NCBI GenBank assembly: GCA_031282385.1 | Contig: JAITDV010000477.1 | Location: 1 to 42,701, forward strand | DNA length: 42,701 nucleotides | Direction: 5' to 3' | Source of the DNA: Planctomycetaceae bacterium | GTDB taxonomy: Bacteria > Planctomycetota > Planctomycetia > Pirellulales > Thermoguttaceae | Part shown: piece by piece, positions 22,146 through 38,904 of the stretch | How positions within the stretch are numbered: position 1 is the first letter of the stretch | Layout of the letters: each line of letters begins with the position of its first letter | Notes under the pieces: generated by a model | Database searches by the model: none | What the model saw: only the letters and a program-made list of their open reading frames with translations | Told to the model about the DNA's origin: nothing | Translations under genes and position numbers: made by a program

Positions 22146-22154
22146 TAATTGAAA

Positions 22155-23255
22155 ATGCAAGAAAAAATTCGATATGAAGGCAAAATTCCGCGGATAAGGC
22201 GGATTTTGATAATCTGTTTTGCGGATGTTGTAAACATTGTCCAAGGTTTACCGATTGTGCCGGCGATCAGGTTACGTTTTCCTCATGTGGAGATTGCGTG
22301 GTTGGTGGAGGAAGCGAATGCGCCGTTGTTGAACAGGCTTATTTCGCTGGATCGTTTAATAATTGTCAAGGATCGTTGTTTACATTCGTGGGGTGAGATT
22401 GGGGAGTTACGGAGGCGGTTAAGGGCGTTTGCGCCGGACGTTACGATTGATTTGCAAGGTAGATTTAGGAGTGCGTTTTCGGCGTGGATTTCGGGTTCAA
22501 ATATTAGGATAGGGTTTGGAGGCAATGATGGGCGTGAGGGGAGTCGTTGGTTGAACAATTGTCTTGTAACGCCGGATGCCGAGCATATTGTGGAGCGGAA
22601 CATGCAGTTATTGCAGCATTTCGGCATTTGTGGGTCGAGTATTAGTTTTGATTTATTTGAGAACGAGATTGATCGTTATTGTGCGGAGTTGATATTGAGC
22701 CGTTGCGGGTTGCATGGCAATTTTGCGATTATGTGTGTGGGGGCGGATGTGGAGTCGCGGTTATGGCGGGAGGAGCGGTATGCGGGGGTGGCGGAGTATT
22801 TAGCGGAGCAATGGAATCTTCCGTCATTTGTGGTGTGGGGTAACGGGTGTGAGCAAAAGTTTGCGGAGCGGGTGTTGAGTGGTGTTGCGGGGGGGGCGGC
22901 GATAATTGCGCCGGCGGTTACGGTCAACGAATTTGCGGCGATTGCGAGGAGGTCAACGCTTGTTGTGGGGTCGGAGTCGGTGCAATTGCATGTTGCGGCG
23001 GCGGTCGGGGCGAGGTGTTTGGGGTTATTGGGGGCAACAGATATGAAGCGGAATGCGCCTTATGGAGAGAAAAATTGCTCAATACAGAAAGCAAACGGAA
23101 GCTTGCGCTCTAACCGCAACGATAGAATTTTAATGGACGCTATCGACACAACTTCTGTGTGTGATGTCTGTGATAGAATGTTGGCAGAAATACTTGAATC
23201 TCCGCAAATCATTACGAATTTCAAGAAAACAACAAACGGACAAAAAGTCGCGTAA
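22155..23255 (+). CDS. glycosyltransferase family 9 (heptosyltransferase-like)
   Basis: RILIICFADVVNIVQGLP...IAWLVEE N-terminus and overall GT9 layout. ATG at 22155 preferred over TTG at 22149. Confidence 0.75.
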   Translation: MQEKIRYEGKIPRIRRILIICFADVVNIVQGLPIVPAIRLRFPHVEIAWLVEEANAPLLNRLISLDRLIIVKDRCLHSWGEIGELRRRLRAFAPDVTIDLQGRFRSAFSAWISGSNIRIGFGGNDGREGSRWLNNCLVTPDAEHIVERNMQLLQHFGICGSSISFDLFENEIDRYCAELILSRCGLHGNFAIMCVGADVESRLWREERYAGVAEYLAEQWNLPSFVVWGNGCEQKFAERVLSGVAGGAAIIAPAVTVNEFAAIARRSTLVVGSESVQLHVAAAVGARCLGLLGATDMKRNAPYGEKNCSIQKANGSLRSNRNDRILMDAIDTTSVCDVCDRMLAEILESPQIITNFKKTTNGQKVA

Positions 23256-32056: not shown

Positions 32057-32160
32057 TTAAACTGCTCACACTTGAAATTTCCTTCACCGCCGCCCGCTTG
32101 ACTACATACAAGCAAGCTTTGACACTCTTGAGCCGCACAATTCATAGTACGAAATGTATA
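32057..32160 (-). mobile_element. M1 MITE copy
   Basis: Reverse match. The stem is replaced by the compensated pair GCTTG (32096-32100) / CAAGC (32109-32113). Confidence 0.8.
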
Positions 32161-32219
32161 TTGCAATAATTTTTGTAACGTTTAATTCAATTCACTAACA
32201 AATTGAAAAGGAGACGAAA

Positions 32220-33315
32220 ATGAAAAAAACAAATTTAAAGTTCGATAGTTGCGTTTTCAGTGTAAAAATAGGAACGACTCATGTTAAAATAGGCGGGGGG
32301 GGGGGGGCTGCATAAAAATCAAAATTGCCAAGATTACCGTAACAATAATCTTCTGGGGATTTCTCCCAAGCCTATTCTTGGTTTTACTCTTGTTGAGCTT
32401 CTTGTTGTAATAGCAATTATCGGCGTTTTAATTGCGCTGCTCTTGCCCGCAATTCAATCGGCACGCGAAGCGGCACGCAGATCAAAATGCTCAAATAACC
32501 TAAAACAATGGGCGCTTTCCGCACACACACATGCTGACGCAAACAAAGGTTGGCTTAATATTGCCGGCTGCCCCGACAGCCGAACCGCACAAAACGGTAA
32601 ATCCTACAACAGACTCTCATGGCCTACTGAACTTTGGGCTTTTATTGAACAATTACCGCTTGCCGAAAAATACAATTACAGTCAACACTTTTATCAAGGC
32701 ACTAACTTAGAAACTTATCGAGTTCGTATCCCCGCATATTATTGTCCTTCCGATAAACCTAATGCAGTTGAAAAGCCTGAGTTCACTACTTATTGGACAG
32801 TTTTAGGAAATTATGTAGTCAACGTAGGAAATACACATCTTCATGTTGACTCGACAGACTTAGCAATTCAAACAGGCGCCCCGTATGGTATCGGTAACGT
32901 ACACGGACTGGAATCTATCATTGACGGCACGTCAAATACTGCTGCTTTTTCTGAAGTTTTAATTCTTGCGGATAAGAAAACTGCCGCAGACGCAGACGCC
33001 CGCGGAGCAATCTTAAATGACAGCGGAACTCCCTGTTTTATGTCAATTCTCACACCAAACTCAAAAAGTCCCGACGAAGTTAGATGGTGTTTGAACGGCA
33101 CGACAGACACAAGTAACAGCTTGTACAAAAAATATCCGTGTTCTGTTGCTCCCAATAATAACAAAGTACAAAACGCCGCACGAAGTAATCACCCCGGCGG
33201 CGTAAATGTCAGTATGTGCGACAGCGGCGTCAAGTTTGTTACAGATAGTATTGCTCATTCAATTTGGCAAGCAGGACTCTCCGCATACGGCAGAGAATCC
33301 GAAACTTTGCCATAA
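32220..33315 (+). pseudogene. DUF1559 protein with prepilin-type N-terminal methylation motif, frame-interrupted at a G13 tract (phase-variable or pseudogene)
   Basis: [34 protein letters not shown] is encoded at 32380-32480, in the frame of the 32443-33315 ORF. That frame has no ATG/GTG/TTG upstream of the motif. An SD+ATG at 32220 lies in the adjacent frame and stops at 32313, just after the G13 run (32295-32307). Confidence 0.7.
32295..32307 (+). repeat. G13 homopolymer tract
   Basis: Thirteen consecutive G counted in AGGC-GGGGGGGGGGGGG-CTG. This is exceptional in a low-GC window. Confidence 0.95.
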
Positions 33316-33357: not shown

Positions 33358-33786
33358 ATGAATTTGAAAATATATTTTATCGGTTTGTTGTTGGCAGTAG
33401 TTGTAATATTTTCGGGTTGCGGATCAAAGGGCGTGCAAACTGTCAAAGTAACAGGAAACATAACAATTGACGGTAACCAAATTGAACAAGGTTCGGTCAA
33501 GTTTATTGATGTTGAAGGAAAAACTCCGACAGGAGGCGGAAGTATTTCCAAAGGAACTTATGCCGCAAATGTTCCTTTGGGCAAAAAAAAGATTCTCGTT
33601 TTAGGGACGAAATTAGTCGGCAAAGAGCCCTTATTTGCAGATATGCCGGATAGTCCTGTCAACGACAAATACGAACAAGTTACTCCCGACGCTTACAACA
33701 GTTTTGAATTGACACCGTTAGAAGCAGAGATAACCGCTGCAATTGACAATTTGAATTTTGATTTGTTGTCAAAATTCAGAAAGTAA
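33358..33786 (+). CDS. small putative lipoprotein
   Basis: AAAGGAGA SD before the ATG at 33358. Signal peptide ends in the lipobox-like VIFSGC. Mature part is beta-rich (VKVTGNITIDG...). Confidence 0.6.
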   Translation: MNLKIYFIGLLLAVVVIFSGCGSKGVQTVKVTGNITIDGNQIEQGSVKFIDVEGKTPTGGGSISKGTYAANVPLGKKKILVLGTKLVGKEPLFADMPDSPVNDKYEQVTPDAYNSFELTPLEAEITAAIDNLNFDLLSKFRK

Positions 33787-33875: not shown

Positions 33876-34988
33876 ATGAAAAATTTGACAAAGAAAAATG
33901 GGTTCACACTTGTTGAACTTTTAGTTGTGATAGCGATCATTGGTGTTTTGATTGCTATTCTTTTGCCCGCAGTACAAGCGGCACGGGAAGCATCCCGACG
34001 CACACAATGCAGCAACAAATTAAGACAATTCGCACTTACATTGCACAACCACCATGACACGCAAGGAACGTTACCCTGTGCTTCAAACGGTTACGGCGGT
34101 ACTGATCAAAATAAACATCGAATCAGTGCATTTATGCCGTTGTTGCCGTTTATTGAAATGACAACACTCTATGAACGCTTTACCGGTTCATATTCTTCAA
34201 TTTCACCTTGGGCAAGTAACGGTAACGTGTTTTTTACGGATTTAAGCGAGATATTTGGTTGTCCGTCTGATCCGTTTCGTACCAGCAAAGTAAATGAAAC
34301 CGCCAAAACCAGTTATCGTATATCGTTTGGAGATTGGGCGGATCGATGTAATCAACACACTGATGACAATCCGCGCGGCGCTTTCGTCGGTAAAATTGGC
34401 GTATCGCGAGATTTTACCGCCGTTACAGATGGAACAAGTAATACTATTGCGTTGTCCGAAGCAACAATAGCAATGAAAAAAGGAGCTTTCTTACAAGGGA
34501 CTGTTGCCAAAAAAATAACATCGTTACCTACAGAAAACCAAAAACCGGACAGTACATTCGACTACAATAGTTGTTTCAATACCGCTAATTGGAAGTCTTA
34601 CAACTCCGGAGTTACGGTTTTCAACGATCAGAGTGGAACACGTTGGGGAGATTGTTATGTGATATTTACGGGTTTTTCAACAATATTCCCGCCAAATTCG
34701 CCTTCATGTGCAAGAGATGACTCTGCATACACTGCCGAACACATTCTACGTACAATCGACAGCAAACAGGTCAATAAAGCCAACAATGTTACCATCATGT
34801 CCGCTTCAAGCTACCACACCAATGGAGTCAATGCAGCATTTTTGGATGGAACAGTACGTTTCGTCAACAATGGAGTCGATTCAGGAACCGACCGAACATT
34901 GAAGTGTCCGACATCCGGTCAATCGCCATTTGGAGTTTGGGGCGCTTGCGGTTCAATAAATGGTGAAGAAACAGCTGCAATACCATAA
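33876..34988 (+). CDS. DUF1559 domain protein with prepilin-type N-terminal cleavage/methylation motif
   Basis: [51 protein letters not shown] is the canonical planctomycete DUF1559 N-terminus. AAGGAGA SD present. Confidence 0.85.
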
Positions 34989-37024: not shown

Positions 37025-37216
37025 AGACCTTTTCGCTAACCTGTAGGAGACCACCCCTAACCCCTCCGAAGGAGGGGAGTAAGAAGATGTCTCCGAAGGG
37101 GGGGAGTAATTCCCCTCCATCGGAGGGGTTAGGGGTGGTCTCGGAGGAGTTAAAGGCAGTTTTTTGTTGTAGTTTTTTTGTTGCGTTGATGTATTTTTAG
37201 GTTAGAGAAAAGGTCT
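37025..37216 (+). mobile_element. M2 MITE copy (192 bp, insertion in the hairpin loop), ATT/AAT flanks
   Basis: Starts 5 nt after the stop codon of the DUF1549/DUF1553 gene. Confidence 0.9.
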
Positions 37217-37605
37217 AATAGTAATATTTCAGTTGCGGGATTCAGTTGTTTAGGAAAAAGGGTTTTGGGAATAGGAACGAAGCAGACAAAAAAGCAGCGT
37301 TCTAAAGTAAACAACCCTTATTTGTCCAAATTCCCTCAGTAGCAGACAACGCCCTCTAATGATGCTCCTATTTTTCCGATGGCGGTGCATAAGACAATAT
37401 CAAACAAACATAAGGGCGAGTTGGGGAGAATTTTGGGCTACTAATGGTAATTTGACAAAAGGATTGGAATATTAGAGCCGCTCGGGAAATTATGTTGTTC
37501 CGCTCGGATTTATTGGGCTTGAGTAACAGAATTGTTGACGATAATAAACATGCGACTGAATGGATACGATTAGAGATAACCATTAAAAATTTTGGAGATA
37601 AAAAT

Positions 37606-38904
37606 ATGAAGCGTCGTGAATTTTTGTCGGCGGGACTTGGCGGAGTTTTGTTGGGTTCGTTGGATAAAGTGGGTTTGGCGGCGGAGTCGAAACCTACGTT
37701 CAAAGCGGGCAAGGCGAAATCAGTGATTCAAATTTGGATGTGGGGAGGTCCTTCGCATCTTGAGACTTTTGATCCGAAGCCTGGTGCCGGTTACGATTAT
37801 TGCGGTCAATGGGATAAACCGATTCAGACCAATGTTTCAAGAATTGAGATTAGTCAATCGCTTCCGATGTTGTCGCGATGTGCTGATTTATATTCTGTGA
37901 TACGTGGGATGACGCATGGAACGAATCACCATGAACAAGCATCTTACGTTATGCAAACCGGACGAATGCCCGGCGGCGGTGTTGTTTATCCGTGTGTTGG
38001 TGCGGTTATTGCCAAAGTTAAGGGATATGATGCGGGTTATGATTTAGCGATTCCGCCTTATATTGTGCTGACAACATCGCAGGGGCGGTTTTCAGAATGC
38101 GGTTTTTTGGGACCGAAGTACAAACCGTTTATTACGGGCGGCGATCCGAGTAAAACGCCGTTTTTAGTTTCCGGTTATGTTGTCGAAGGCATAACTGATA
38201 AACGGCAACGTGAACGTAAAGAACTTCTCAATAGACTTGATTTATTCGGCAAGGCTGCTGAAACTAATTCGCTGATCGGCGAGGTTGAGGCGGCTCGCGA
38301 AAATGCGTTTAATCTGATTTTCGGTAACACGGTAAAGATTTTTGATATTAGCAAGGAATCGGAAAAAAGACGTAATGATTACGGAATGAATTGGTTTGGT
38401 CAAGCATGTTTGATGGCGCGGCGATTGGTGCAAAACGGCGTTCCGTACATAACGATTAATTATCGCGGTTGGGACACGCACAAACGGCATTTTGAAACAT
38501 TAACACGGCGGCAAGTTGAATGGGATCGCGGATTATCAATGTTGTTACGTGAACTTGCGGATTTGGGCTTGTTGGACTCGACAATTGTGTGGTGGGGCGG
38601 TGAATTTGGGAGAACGCCAAAAATTGATTGGGCGGCTCCTTGGCTTGGCGGACGCGGACATTTTGGGCGTTGTTTCAATGTCTTGCTTGCCGGCGGCGGA
38701 TTTAAAGGCGGATGCGTTGTTGGTGAAACAGACAAAACAGGGGAAAATATCATTGCAAGACCGGTCTATCCGCAAGATTTGCTCGGCAGCATCTATCAAA
38801 TGTTAGGAATAAATCCCGACGAAAAATTGCCCAACGAAAAAGGATTCAACGTACCAGCAATGCCGCCGGCGTCAAAATCAGGACGATTAAATGAACTGGT
38901 TTAA
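37606..38904 (+). CDS. DUF1501 domain protein (Tat signal, sulfatase-like)
   Basis: GGAGA SD and ATG at 37606. Twin-arginine MKRREFLSAGLGG, then WMWGGPSHLETFDPKP and WGGEFGRTP motifs typical of DUF1501. Confidence 0.85.
   Translation: MKRREFLSAGLGGVLLGSLDKVGLAAESKPTFKAGKAKSVIQIWMWGGPSHLETFDPKPGAGYDYCGQWDKPIQTNVSRIEISQSLPMLSRCADLYSVIRGMTHGTNHHEQASYVMQTGRMPGGGVVYPCVGAVIAKVKGYDAGYDLAIPPYIVLTTSQGRFSECGFLGPKYKPFITGGDPSKTPFLVSGYVVEGITDKRQRERKELLNRLDLFGKAAETNSLIGEVEAARENAFNLIFGNTVKIFDISKESEKRRNDYGMNWFGQACLMARRLVQNGVPYITINYRGWDTHKRHFETLTRRQVEWDRGLSMLLRELADLGLLDSTIVWWGGEFGRTPKIDWAAPWLGGRGHFGRCFNVLLAGGGFKGGCVVGETDKTGENIIARPVYPQDLLGSIYQMLGINPDEKLPNEKGFNVPAMPPASKSGRLNELV

Follow-up and report, generated by a model that had tools for sequence, protein, structure and literature searches.

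This report concerns a 42,701-nt stretch of DNA from a Planctomycetaceae bacterium (GenBank assembly GCA_031282385.1, contig JAITDV010000477.1, positions 1 to 42,701), called the window here. A run of 13 consecutive G residues, G13, lies at 32295–32307 on the + strand in the leader-coding region of a gene for a prepilin-type protein of the DUF1559 family. We think it probable that G13 is a slipped-strand contingency switch that turns this gene on and off. Provided that 13 G is a correct count, the window allele is most likely OFF. Among the grounds for the proposal are the following. The position of the tract is conserved in relatives that are near synonymous saturation, the tract length and the resulting reading frame vary among these relatives, and the genes themselves are constrained. 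An initial annotation of the window had put forward an ON/OFF device of this kind, and the conserved purity of the tract, the differing lengths and frames between loci and the many paralogues that carry a tract all lend support to it.

The G tract and the two reading frames

The layout of the locus, read directly from the sequence, is as follows. A Shine-Dalgarno (SD) sequence, AAAGGAGA (32207–32214, + strand), ends 5 nt before an ATG at 32220. Equivalents of this site, GGAGG or GGAGGAG, precede the leader ATG in the related loci L001, L004, L038, L039 and L040. The leader open reading frame (ORF) that this ATG opens in the G13 phase of the tract (32220–32315, + strand) has 31 codons, ends in GGGGGAA and is closed by a TAA at 32313–32315. 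The DUF1559, or pilin, frame is open from 32293, just past a TAG at 32290–32292, and runs to the stop codon at 33313–33315. It has no ATG, GTG or TTG 5′ of the TTG at 32443. That is, G13 is one G too long for the in-frame state. Removal of one G (G12) or addition of two (G15) joins both frames into a single protein of 364 amino acid residues with a 53-residue leader, so that a change in tract length moves the functional ORF in and out of frame. The initial annotation had described the tract, the SD–ATG frame that stops after it, the pilin frame with its first possible start at 32443 and the fusion by loss of one G or gain of two; all of this was confirmed to the base.

Apart from G13, no G/C run in the window, which has a GC content of 40.5%, exceeds 8 nt. 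From the G frequency of the window, 0.204, about 4e-5 G13 runs are expected per window strand, which bears out the remark in the initial annotation that chance would hardly produce the tract. In known contingency loci, slippable G/C homopolymers are about 7–8 nt or more. G13, lying inside an ORF, is thus a slippable tract well above compositional expectation.

Codon usage indicates that the tract is selected as DNA and not as polyglycine, because GGG codons are rare, other Gly runs are of mixed codons and the relatives all have pure G. GGG makes up 11.6% of the Gly codons in the window genes, and the five other Gly runs of at least three residues in the window all use mixed codons. The probability of four consecutive GGG codons is about 2e-4, yet a pure G run is found in every relative. 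In 86 kb of DNA from the lineage, G/C runs of at least 9 nt are leader tracts only, apart from low-complexity junk at the end of the L002 contig, and the G residues of these tracts are always on the sense strand.

The fused protein has the features of DUF1559/H-X9-DG prepilin-type proteins: the G↓FTLxE motif (the arrow marks the predicted cleavage site) with a hydrophobic helix, the domain itself and the C-terminal motif. The class III (prepilin) signal is encoded by 32380–32445 (+ strand) and is matched at residues 54–75 by the Pfam N_methyl profile PF07963 (26.5 bits; cut-off 21.2) and the NCBIfam profile TIGR02532 (22.3 bits; cut-off 16.3). Gly at −1, Phe at +1 and Glu at +5 are all present at the predicted peptidase cut after G54. 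The N-terminal helix resembles those of solved type IV pilins and GspG. The mature pseudopilin-like protein (32380–33315, + strand) comprises 311 intact codons and the stop codon. The DUF1559/SBP_bac_10 profile of Pfam, PF07596, matches with 139.5 bits over profile positions 1–266 of 268, and the H-X9-DG domain TIGR04294 of NCBIfam with 26.8 bits (cut-off 19). In the H-X9-DG motif of the window protein, S replaces G; the close relatives have DG. Between the tract and the signal lie 24 post-tract leader residues (32308–32379, + strand). Of its three frames, only the pilin frame and the one a base further downstream are open in this segment, and it is homologous to the corresponding part of L002, L003, L004 and L039, of L040 and of protein P0089.

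The public annotations of this gene begin elsewhere. NCBI starts it at an ATT at 32374, giving the 313-residue P0134 with a two-residue leader, M-L-G↓FTLVELL, and JGI starts P0001 at the TTG at 32443, inside the hydrophobic helix. Both choices mask the frameshift from anyone who reads the protein records alone.

We propose the following mechanism. Translation would start at the SD–ATG at 32220. With 12 or 15 G, the ribosome would read the tract as four or five GGG (Gly) codons, enter ...SPKPIL-G↓FTLVELL and make the full-length prepilin-type protein, which prepilin peptidase would then cut after G54. With 13 G, the ribosome would stop two codons past the tract, the pilin frame would have no start codon, and the gene would be OFF. 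We infer that such a long G run slips during replication in vivo; its length would change often and reversibly, and each lineage would toggle the gene. Changes of 3 G would spare the mature protein, because the tract lies in the cleaved leader.

Tract length and frame in related loci

Relatives were collected by a search with the mature domain, which is unbiased for frame state. The five closest clusters are 78–81% identical to the window in this domain. One of them, P0002 (372 residues, from L001), is continuous from MKKT... via NVKIGNGGGGGK to GFTLVELL. By contrast with this protein, P0003, P0004, P0005 and the window product have called starts within the hydrophobic helix and no N_methyl match. 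The tract of L001 is G14 and in frame. The window and L004, both G13, and L003, with G15, are out of frame by one additional G. The contig of L002 begins in junk plus tract, an assembly break. L038 (P0072; 39% identical overall), another locus found through the mature domain, is G15 and in frame. Among further loci, L039 (P0136, with a different mature domain) is G14 and in frame, and L040 (GCA_031266565.1) is G13 and out of frame from its SD–ATG. L041, with G17, is also out of frame and consists of a 45-residue leader ORF and a DUF1559 gene that has no N_methyl call. The lengths over the homologous loci are, in sum, G13, G13, G13, G14, G14, G15, G15 and G17, and both frame states are represented. 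The difference can be seen between identical immediate flanks: AAAC-G14-CAACC is in frame in L039 and AAAC-G15-CAACC is out of frame in L003. In the small sample that is unbiased for frame, three members are in frame (L001, L038 and P0089), four have one additional G (the window, L003, L004 and L041), and none is one G short.

The genes downstream of these tracts are under purifying selection. The ratio of nonsynonymous to synonymous substitution rates (dN/dS) in the mature domain is 0.12–0.15 between the window and L001–L004, at dS of about 0.9–1.0, and 0.13–0.27 for pairs in which both members are out of frame; dS over the comparisons ranges from 0.35 to 1.0. The frames of the leader are conserved as well. 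The seven long-leader loci agree in three respects: between the ATG and the tract, no frame but that of the ATG is open; over the 72–105 nt between the tract and the G↓F site, the pilin frame stays open; and after the tract, the +1-state frame meets 3–6 stop codons.

The initial annotation had pointed out the unusual leader of about 53 residues. This length is real and is conserved across the family, where leaders are 53–72 residues long, and hence is no artefact of fusing two frames. P0089, whose body is 40% identical to that of the window protein, has a leader that is nearly the same as the window's, MKKTNLTF...VKIGRGGGVHKEQNCPNYRYDNFLRISPKPFLG, from which it follows that the leader is a module common to quite different DUF1559 paralogues. 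In-frame proteins with a long leader include P0089, P0121, P0122 and P0136. Four mid-GC loci of other metagenomes have short leaders with in-frame tracts of G9–G12 after GTTAAAATGGGG (MKNVKMGGGGNSS↓AFTLVELL). None of the DUF1559 loci above 52% GC in the metagenome contig scan has a leader tract. The same scan, made with the mature-domain alignment, returned only DUF1559 genes of at most 38% identity, the JGI samples with the close relatives apparently being outside the collection, and a genome contig scan with the fused protein returned an unrelated Muribaculaceae pilin as its sole match, with no close relative.

Two further loci may be mentioned here. L035 has divergent prepilin-type genes on one 5-kb stretch, each with a 12-nt leader G tract, at 64–75 on the − strand (GKMGGGGNQG↓AFTLV...) and at 1092–1103 (VKMGGGGNVR↓AFTLVELL). 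In L041, the segment 10001–10189 (P0126) encodes the same type of leader (...NRNYCNDNS...) with ..FDARNSGTPDK.. and no G tract; apparently the tract was lost from this paralogue or was never present in it.

The survey of paralogues for such tracts that the initial annotation had called for shows that many paralogues carry one, several of them in the same metagenome-assembled genome (MAG). In a search of 1.84 billion representatives (50% identity) with a leader-plus-helix profile, the best 150 were classified: about 29 are in frame through the tract (...NVK[IM]G.GGGG...), 9 read the preceding motif in the other frame (ML[KE]W...GGG...) and 18 start just 3′ of the tract. Another leader-plus-helix profile search yielded short partial proteins only. 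A profile of the pre-tract leader gave 120 leader sequences among the matches listed, all of them "hypothetical proteins" of 31–78 residues, that is, stand-alone leader ORFs (P0283–P0402). A Gly run of at least three residues is present in 117 distinct leader ORFs among these matches. Ninety-nine of the 117 stop no more than 12 residues past the Gly run, mostly after exactly three (SNM, ATI or AVM and then the stop), 14 continue in the third frame for another 33–43 residues, which form a hydrophobic tail, and 4 are intermediate. Over all homologues, the tract occurs in each of the three frame states. By NCBI locus tag, there are several such ORFs per MAG: five in LBK06, three in LBP59 and three in LBJ00. 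These counts give no ON:OFF ratio, since the search has a word index that favours short sequences and missed known in-frame proteins of its own query alignment. The named relatives are all "MAG: Planctomycetaceae bacterium".

A conserved DNA motif, ATGTTAAAATAGGC (32281–32294, + strand), abuts the tract on its 5′ side and reads ..VKIG in the leader frame. Its consensus, AATGTTAA(A/T)(A/T)T(A/G)GGC, is kept in all related loci and in the short-leader relatives, and an equivalent 5′ motif occurs at L025, L026, L030, L035, L040 and L041. Shifted by one base, the window motif reads ATG-TTA-AAA-TAG, an alternative ATG that is closed by the TAG at 32290–32292. Different proteins read the motif in these two frames, as NVK[IM]G or as ML[KI]W, and it is sometimes duplicated (VNLGVNLGK in L041; NVKIDEENVKIGK in P0395 and P0401). 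The ATG of the motif lies in the frame of the +1 state. A TAG closes it in the window and in L003, L004 and L041, whereas a TGG leaves it open in L040, which encodes P0123 (MLIWANRGGGG...), and in nine representatives of the MLKW type. In some paralogues, two of the phases may thus be translatable.

Taken together, the elements 5′ of the mature domain make up a cassette: an SD–ATG with some 25 leader codons, then the motif AATGTTAA..T.GGC and the pure G tract, and after these another 25–35 or so leader codons. We suggest that this cassette, placed 5′ of many DUF1559 paralogues in low-GC Planctomycetaceae MAGs, would give independent stochastic expression of members of a surface or pseudopilus family.

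Weighing of the alternatives

Several observations weigh against the switch proposal. Constraint on the leader peptide is weak (the ratio of the proportions of nonsynonymous and synonymous differences, pN/pS, is about 0.4–1.1) and the estimate is too noisy to prove translation, so that it is the conservation of frame that argues for the leader being translated; weak constraint does fit a peptide that is cut off. The leader is also long for a class III signal. Characterised prepilin leaders are short and basic, of roughly 5–30 residues, and to our knowledge 53 residues exceeds every one of them; from the intact cleavage motif, we nevertheless infer that prepilin peptidase cuts after G54. The conservation of the 5′ motif appears to be that of a DNA sequence rather than a peptide, which hints at some further function. 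The tract lengths that we compare belong to paralogous or diverged loci, not to clonal descendants of one locus, and an error of one G is possible in counts of G13–G17 taken from metagenomes assembled from short reads. Finally, there is a skew among the out-of-frame states. Five out-of-frame loci were checked in their DNA (the window, L003, L004, L040 and L041), and each has one additional G; the leader ORFs among the matches listed are divided 99 to 14 in the same sense. Simple, unbiased slippage does not predict such a skew, and a technical bias or a decoded state could. Possible causes of the +1 excess are selection against the hydrophobic product of the n−1 state, insertion-biased slippage, a technical +1 bias and partial decoding.

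The technical explanation holds that the true tract is G12 (or G15), that the gene is intact with polyglycine in a long leader, and that the frameshift is an artefact. Both short-read chemistry and assemblers have difficulty with long G runs. At its start (1–70), the contig of L002 has some 60 nt of low-complexity, C-rich junk leading into the G tract, from which we conclude that these tracts trouble assembly; many leader-bearing NCBI proteins are likewise "partial" at contig ends (P0121–P0133). The uniform direction of the skew is what a systematic overcall would give, and only a few samples, numbered consecutively by JGI and maybe from one project, yielded the related loci. The same samples, however, gave in-frame tracts of G14, G14 and G15, so any overcall is not systematic, and the 14 leader ORFs in the other wrong frame do not fit it. 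Ten 8-nt homopolymer runs of the window sit within intact ORFs, and the assembly is therefore not generally prone to homopolymer frameshifts. We consider a miscount unlikely. Were the tract G12, a pure G run of 12–17 nt would still be hypermutable, and the phase of the allele would change rather than the nature of the element. An alternative that accepts the count is recoding, in which slippage of RNA polymerase or a +1 slip of tRNA-Gly on GGG-G would restore the pilin frame in some of the messages or ribosomes, and the tract would set a level of expression instead of being a heritable ON/OFF switch. At +1 sites of the prfB or oaz type, a zero-frame stop or a hungry codon directly adjoins the slippery codon. 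The over-representation of the +1 state is what recoding would lead one to expect, as are the rarity of GGG, the perfect re-pairing after a slip that a run of identical codons permits, and the 3–6 stops that the +1-state frame meets after the tract; long homopolymers in general are known for transcriptional slippage (PMC3711429). The documented cases, on the other hand, concern A/T runs (PMC3711429). Furthermore, genes with a programmed frameshift are normally fixed in the shifted state, and here in-frame alleles exist with the same flanks (L039 against L003), in-frame homologues are common, and the zero-frame stop lies two to three codons beyond the run instead of next to it. The locus does not have the form of a programmed +1 site of the prfB or oaz type, and recoding seems to us quite unlikely.

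It could also be supposed that translation begins at the non-canonical ATT at 32374 and that the SD–ATG ORF with its tract is a separate upstream ORF or a 5′ leader. The NCBI product P0134 does begin there, and stand-alone leader ORFs are common. The ATT has no SD sequence 5′ of it, though, and would leave an atypical two-residue prepilin leader, while P0002, P0072, P0089 and P0136 are translated unbroken from the SD–ATG through the tract into the pilin. A non-coding AT-rich spacer would not stay open over the 72–105 nt from tract to cleavage site in seven of seven loci. We regard this start as very improbable. Hardly credible is the view that the gene is a frameshifted paralogue on its way to decay, even if no full-length product is encoded from a canonical start as assembled and the family is highly redundant, with 68 paralogues in P. 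limnophila (PMC10632474). The sole lesion is at the tract, and the 311 codons behind it are intact and constrained at the dN/dS given above against four relatives. The single-lesion pattern is repeated in L003 and L004, where the downstream ORFs are likewise intact (the L040 contig ends), in-frame sister alleles exist, and the tract and leader frames have been kept over a dS of about 1. Pseudogenisation, which the initial annotation had retained as a real alternative, is contradicted by these findings. The slipped-strand switch remains the reading that we prefer.

It is tempting to go further, and to see in the cassette a dedicated, modular, three-state switch that gates dozens of DUF1559 paralogues individually in each genome of these low-GC, probably anaerobic Planctomycetaceae. 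This extension is tentative, and we doubt it more than we believe it. In such a device, the in-frame state would be ON. A tract one G longer would be a safe OFF state, with a stop within three codons, and in some paralogues this +1 state would allow low-level or alternative-start expression through +1 slippage or the second ATG. A tract one G shorter would be counter-selected. The alternative ATG embedded in the motif and a pure tract of G12–17 would both be parts of this device.

Gene surroundings and relation to known switches

A promoter-like site, TTGACA-18 nt-CATAGT (32119–32148, + strand; 10/12 in a consensus scan), lies some 70 nt 5′ of the leader ATG. Promoter-like sites in this region do not exceed the expectation from shuffled sequence, so the site is a putative one. 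Upstream of the leader ATG, the DNA sequence of some 250 nt is conserved between paralogues with different mature domains (L001 1–240, L004 1–240, L039 300–537, L040 7250–7491 and about 32130–32219 of the window). This stretch contains a block TTGACCGCACAATA...TTTTTGCAACGTTTATCAAATCC and, some 240 nt 5′ of the ATG, a TTGCGT-N17-TATAAT-like site; the window keeps the proximal blocks only. It could represent a common promoter or a long 5′ untranslated region. Rfam has nothing near the locus or matching the upstream stretch, its sole match being a chance snoRNA (E = 0.26). In the post-tract leader there is a small palindrome, GGGGATTTCTCCC, at 32355–32367, which is TAGGAGTTCTCCTA in L003 and L039, one pair being changed on both sides in these two sequences. 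An attenuator or terminator in the post-tract leader was considered and rejected, as the consensus fold is only −3.7 kcal/mol with one covarying pair, and a "terminator-like" hairpin at 32366–32381 is weak, with 5 pairs. A role for a G-quadruplex was set aside; the pure G run and the frame logic were deemed sufficient.

Downstream of the tract-bearing gene on the + strand is a gene for a predicted lipoprotein of 142 residues (33358–33786; lipobox-like ...VIFSGC...), whose product has no Pfam or NCBIfam match. Counterparts of 137–147 residues lie 3′ of the tract-bearing DUF1559 gene in L001, L002, L003 and L038, and the two genes are possibly co-transcribed. A second DUF1559 paralogue follows (33876–34988, + strand) with no tract and an ordinary eight-residue leader, MKNLTKKN↓GFTLVELL. 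This arrangement recurs in L003 and L038, and it provides an internal comparison for the tract-bearing gene. Other neighbours in the window are DUF1549/DUF1553, DUF1501, fucosidase, HydF, FTHFS and BcrAD-type activase genes, a content that fits an anaerobic planctomycete. The second-longest G/C run of the window, G8 at 22889–22896, is within an intact GT9 (heptosyltransferase) ORF (22149–23255); glycosyltransferases of lipopolysaccharide and lipooligosaccharide (LOS) are classic poly-G phase-variable genes elsewhere. An intergenic G7 (37098–37104) lies upstream of the DUF1501 gene (37492–38904).

Homopolymer-driven switching in a signal or leader region is a known mechanism. Neisseria pilC has a homo-guanine tract in the signal-peptide region that undergoes RecA-independent on/off frameshifts (PMC5354566, citing Jonsson et al. 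1991). As in pilC1 and pilC2 of N. gonorrhoeae and N. meningitidis, the G tract of the window is in the cleaved N-terminal region of a type IV pilus-associated gene, where in-frame changes of length leave the mature protein unaltered. PilC, however, is a tip adhesin that depends on Sec and is present twice per genome, whereas here the protein is a DUF1559 pseudopilin with a class III signal, a long conserved leader and many paralogues in another phylum, and switching is deduced from sequence. The multi-paralogue opa family provides a second parallel. The (CTCTT)n repeat of opa is in the leader-peptide region. Each Neisseria opa copy has its own repeat tract near its 5′ end and switches independently, and most copies are out of frame (PMC5354566), which matches the several out-of-frame leader ORFs per MAG seen here. 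Opa differs in having a pentameric repeat, in being an outer-membrane beta-barrel with a Sec signal, and in its taxon and fold, which are unrelated.

Like the poly-G/C loci of Campylobacter jejuni, the tract is a G/C homopolymer within an ORF of a surface-structure gene. In C. jejuni, a longer poly-G tract is about 10-fold more mutable, and the pattern of insertions and deletions depends on length, with preferred length pairs (PMC3401435). The modal tract there is G9, in contrast to G13–G17 in the long-leader group, and the targets are mostly glycosyltransferases and similar proteins, not pilin-like ones. Long tracts in C. jejuni mutate mainly by deletion, a tendency that alone does not explain the +1 excess. 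In lic1 of Haemophilus influenzae, Weiser et al. are said to have found, in 1989, (CAAT)n repeats 3′ of several ATGs in different frames, such that two of three phases are translatable. The motif A-ATG-TTA-AAA-T(A/G)G resembles this arrangement in giving a second ATG in the frame of the +1 state. In the window, unlike lic1, the alternative ATG is closed by TAG and has no SD sequence; moreover, the lic1 repeat is a tetranucleotide and the gene serves the phosphorylcholine decoration of LOS.

The initial annotation knew of no such device in DUF1559 genes, and our search of a full-text collection, in which four papers mention DUF1559, likewise found no description of phase variation in DUF1559 or in Planctomycetes. 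What is new is most likely the phylum, the gene family, the conserved leader cassette and its spread over more than 100 distinct loci. There is a practical warning in this, since the tracts break assemblies and mislead gene callers, as with the NCBI ATT start.

No other paralogous family of planctomycete genomes is as large as DUF1559, a family of no known function; in P. limnophila, too, it forms the biggest paralogue group, with 68 copies (PMC10632474). If many copies each switch, the DUF1559 proteins would be surface or pseudopilus components that are varied stochastically, as Opa and PilC are. Hundreds of "truncated" DUF1559 genes and "hypothetical" ORFs of 37–41 residues in MAGs would then be out-of-phase alleles and not pseudogenes or junk. 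If the three-state switch, tentative as it is, were true, it would provide combinatorial, heritable surface variation, and it would be a strong functional clue to DUF1559 proteins being exposed and under fluctuating selection, for instance by phages, predators or a host. Contingency loci would, if the switch is real, extend to the Planctomycetota, including uncultured, apparently anaerobic, glycan-degrading members of the phylum.

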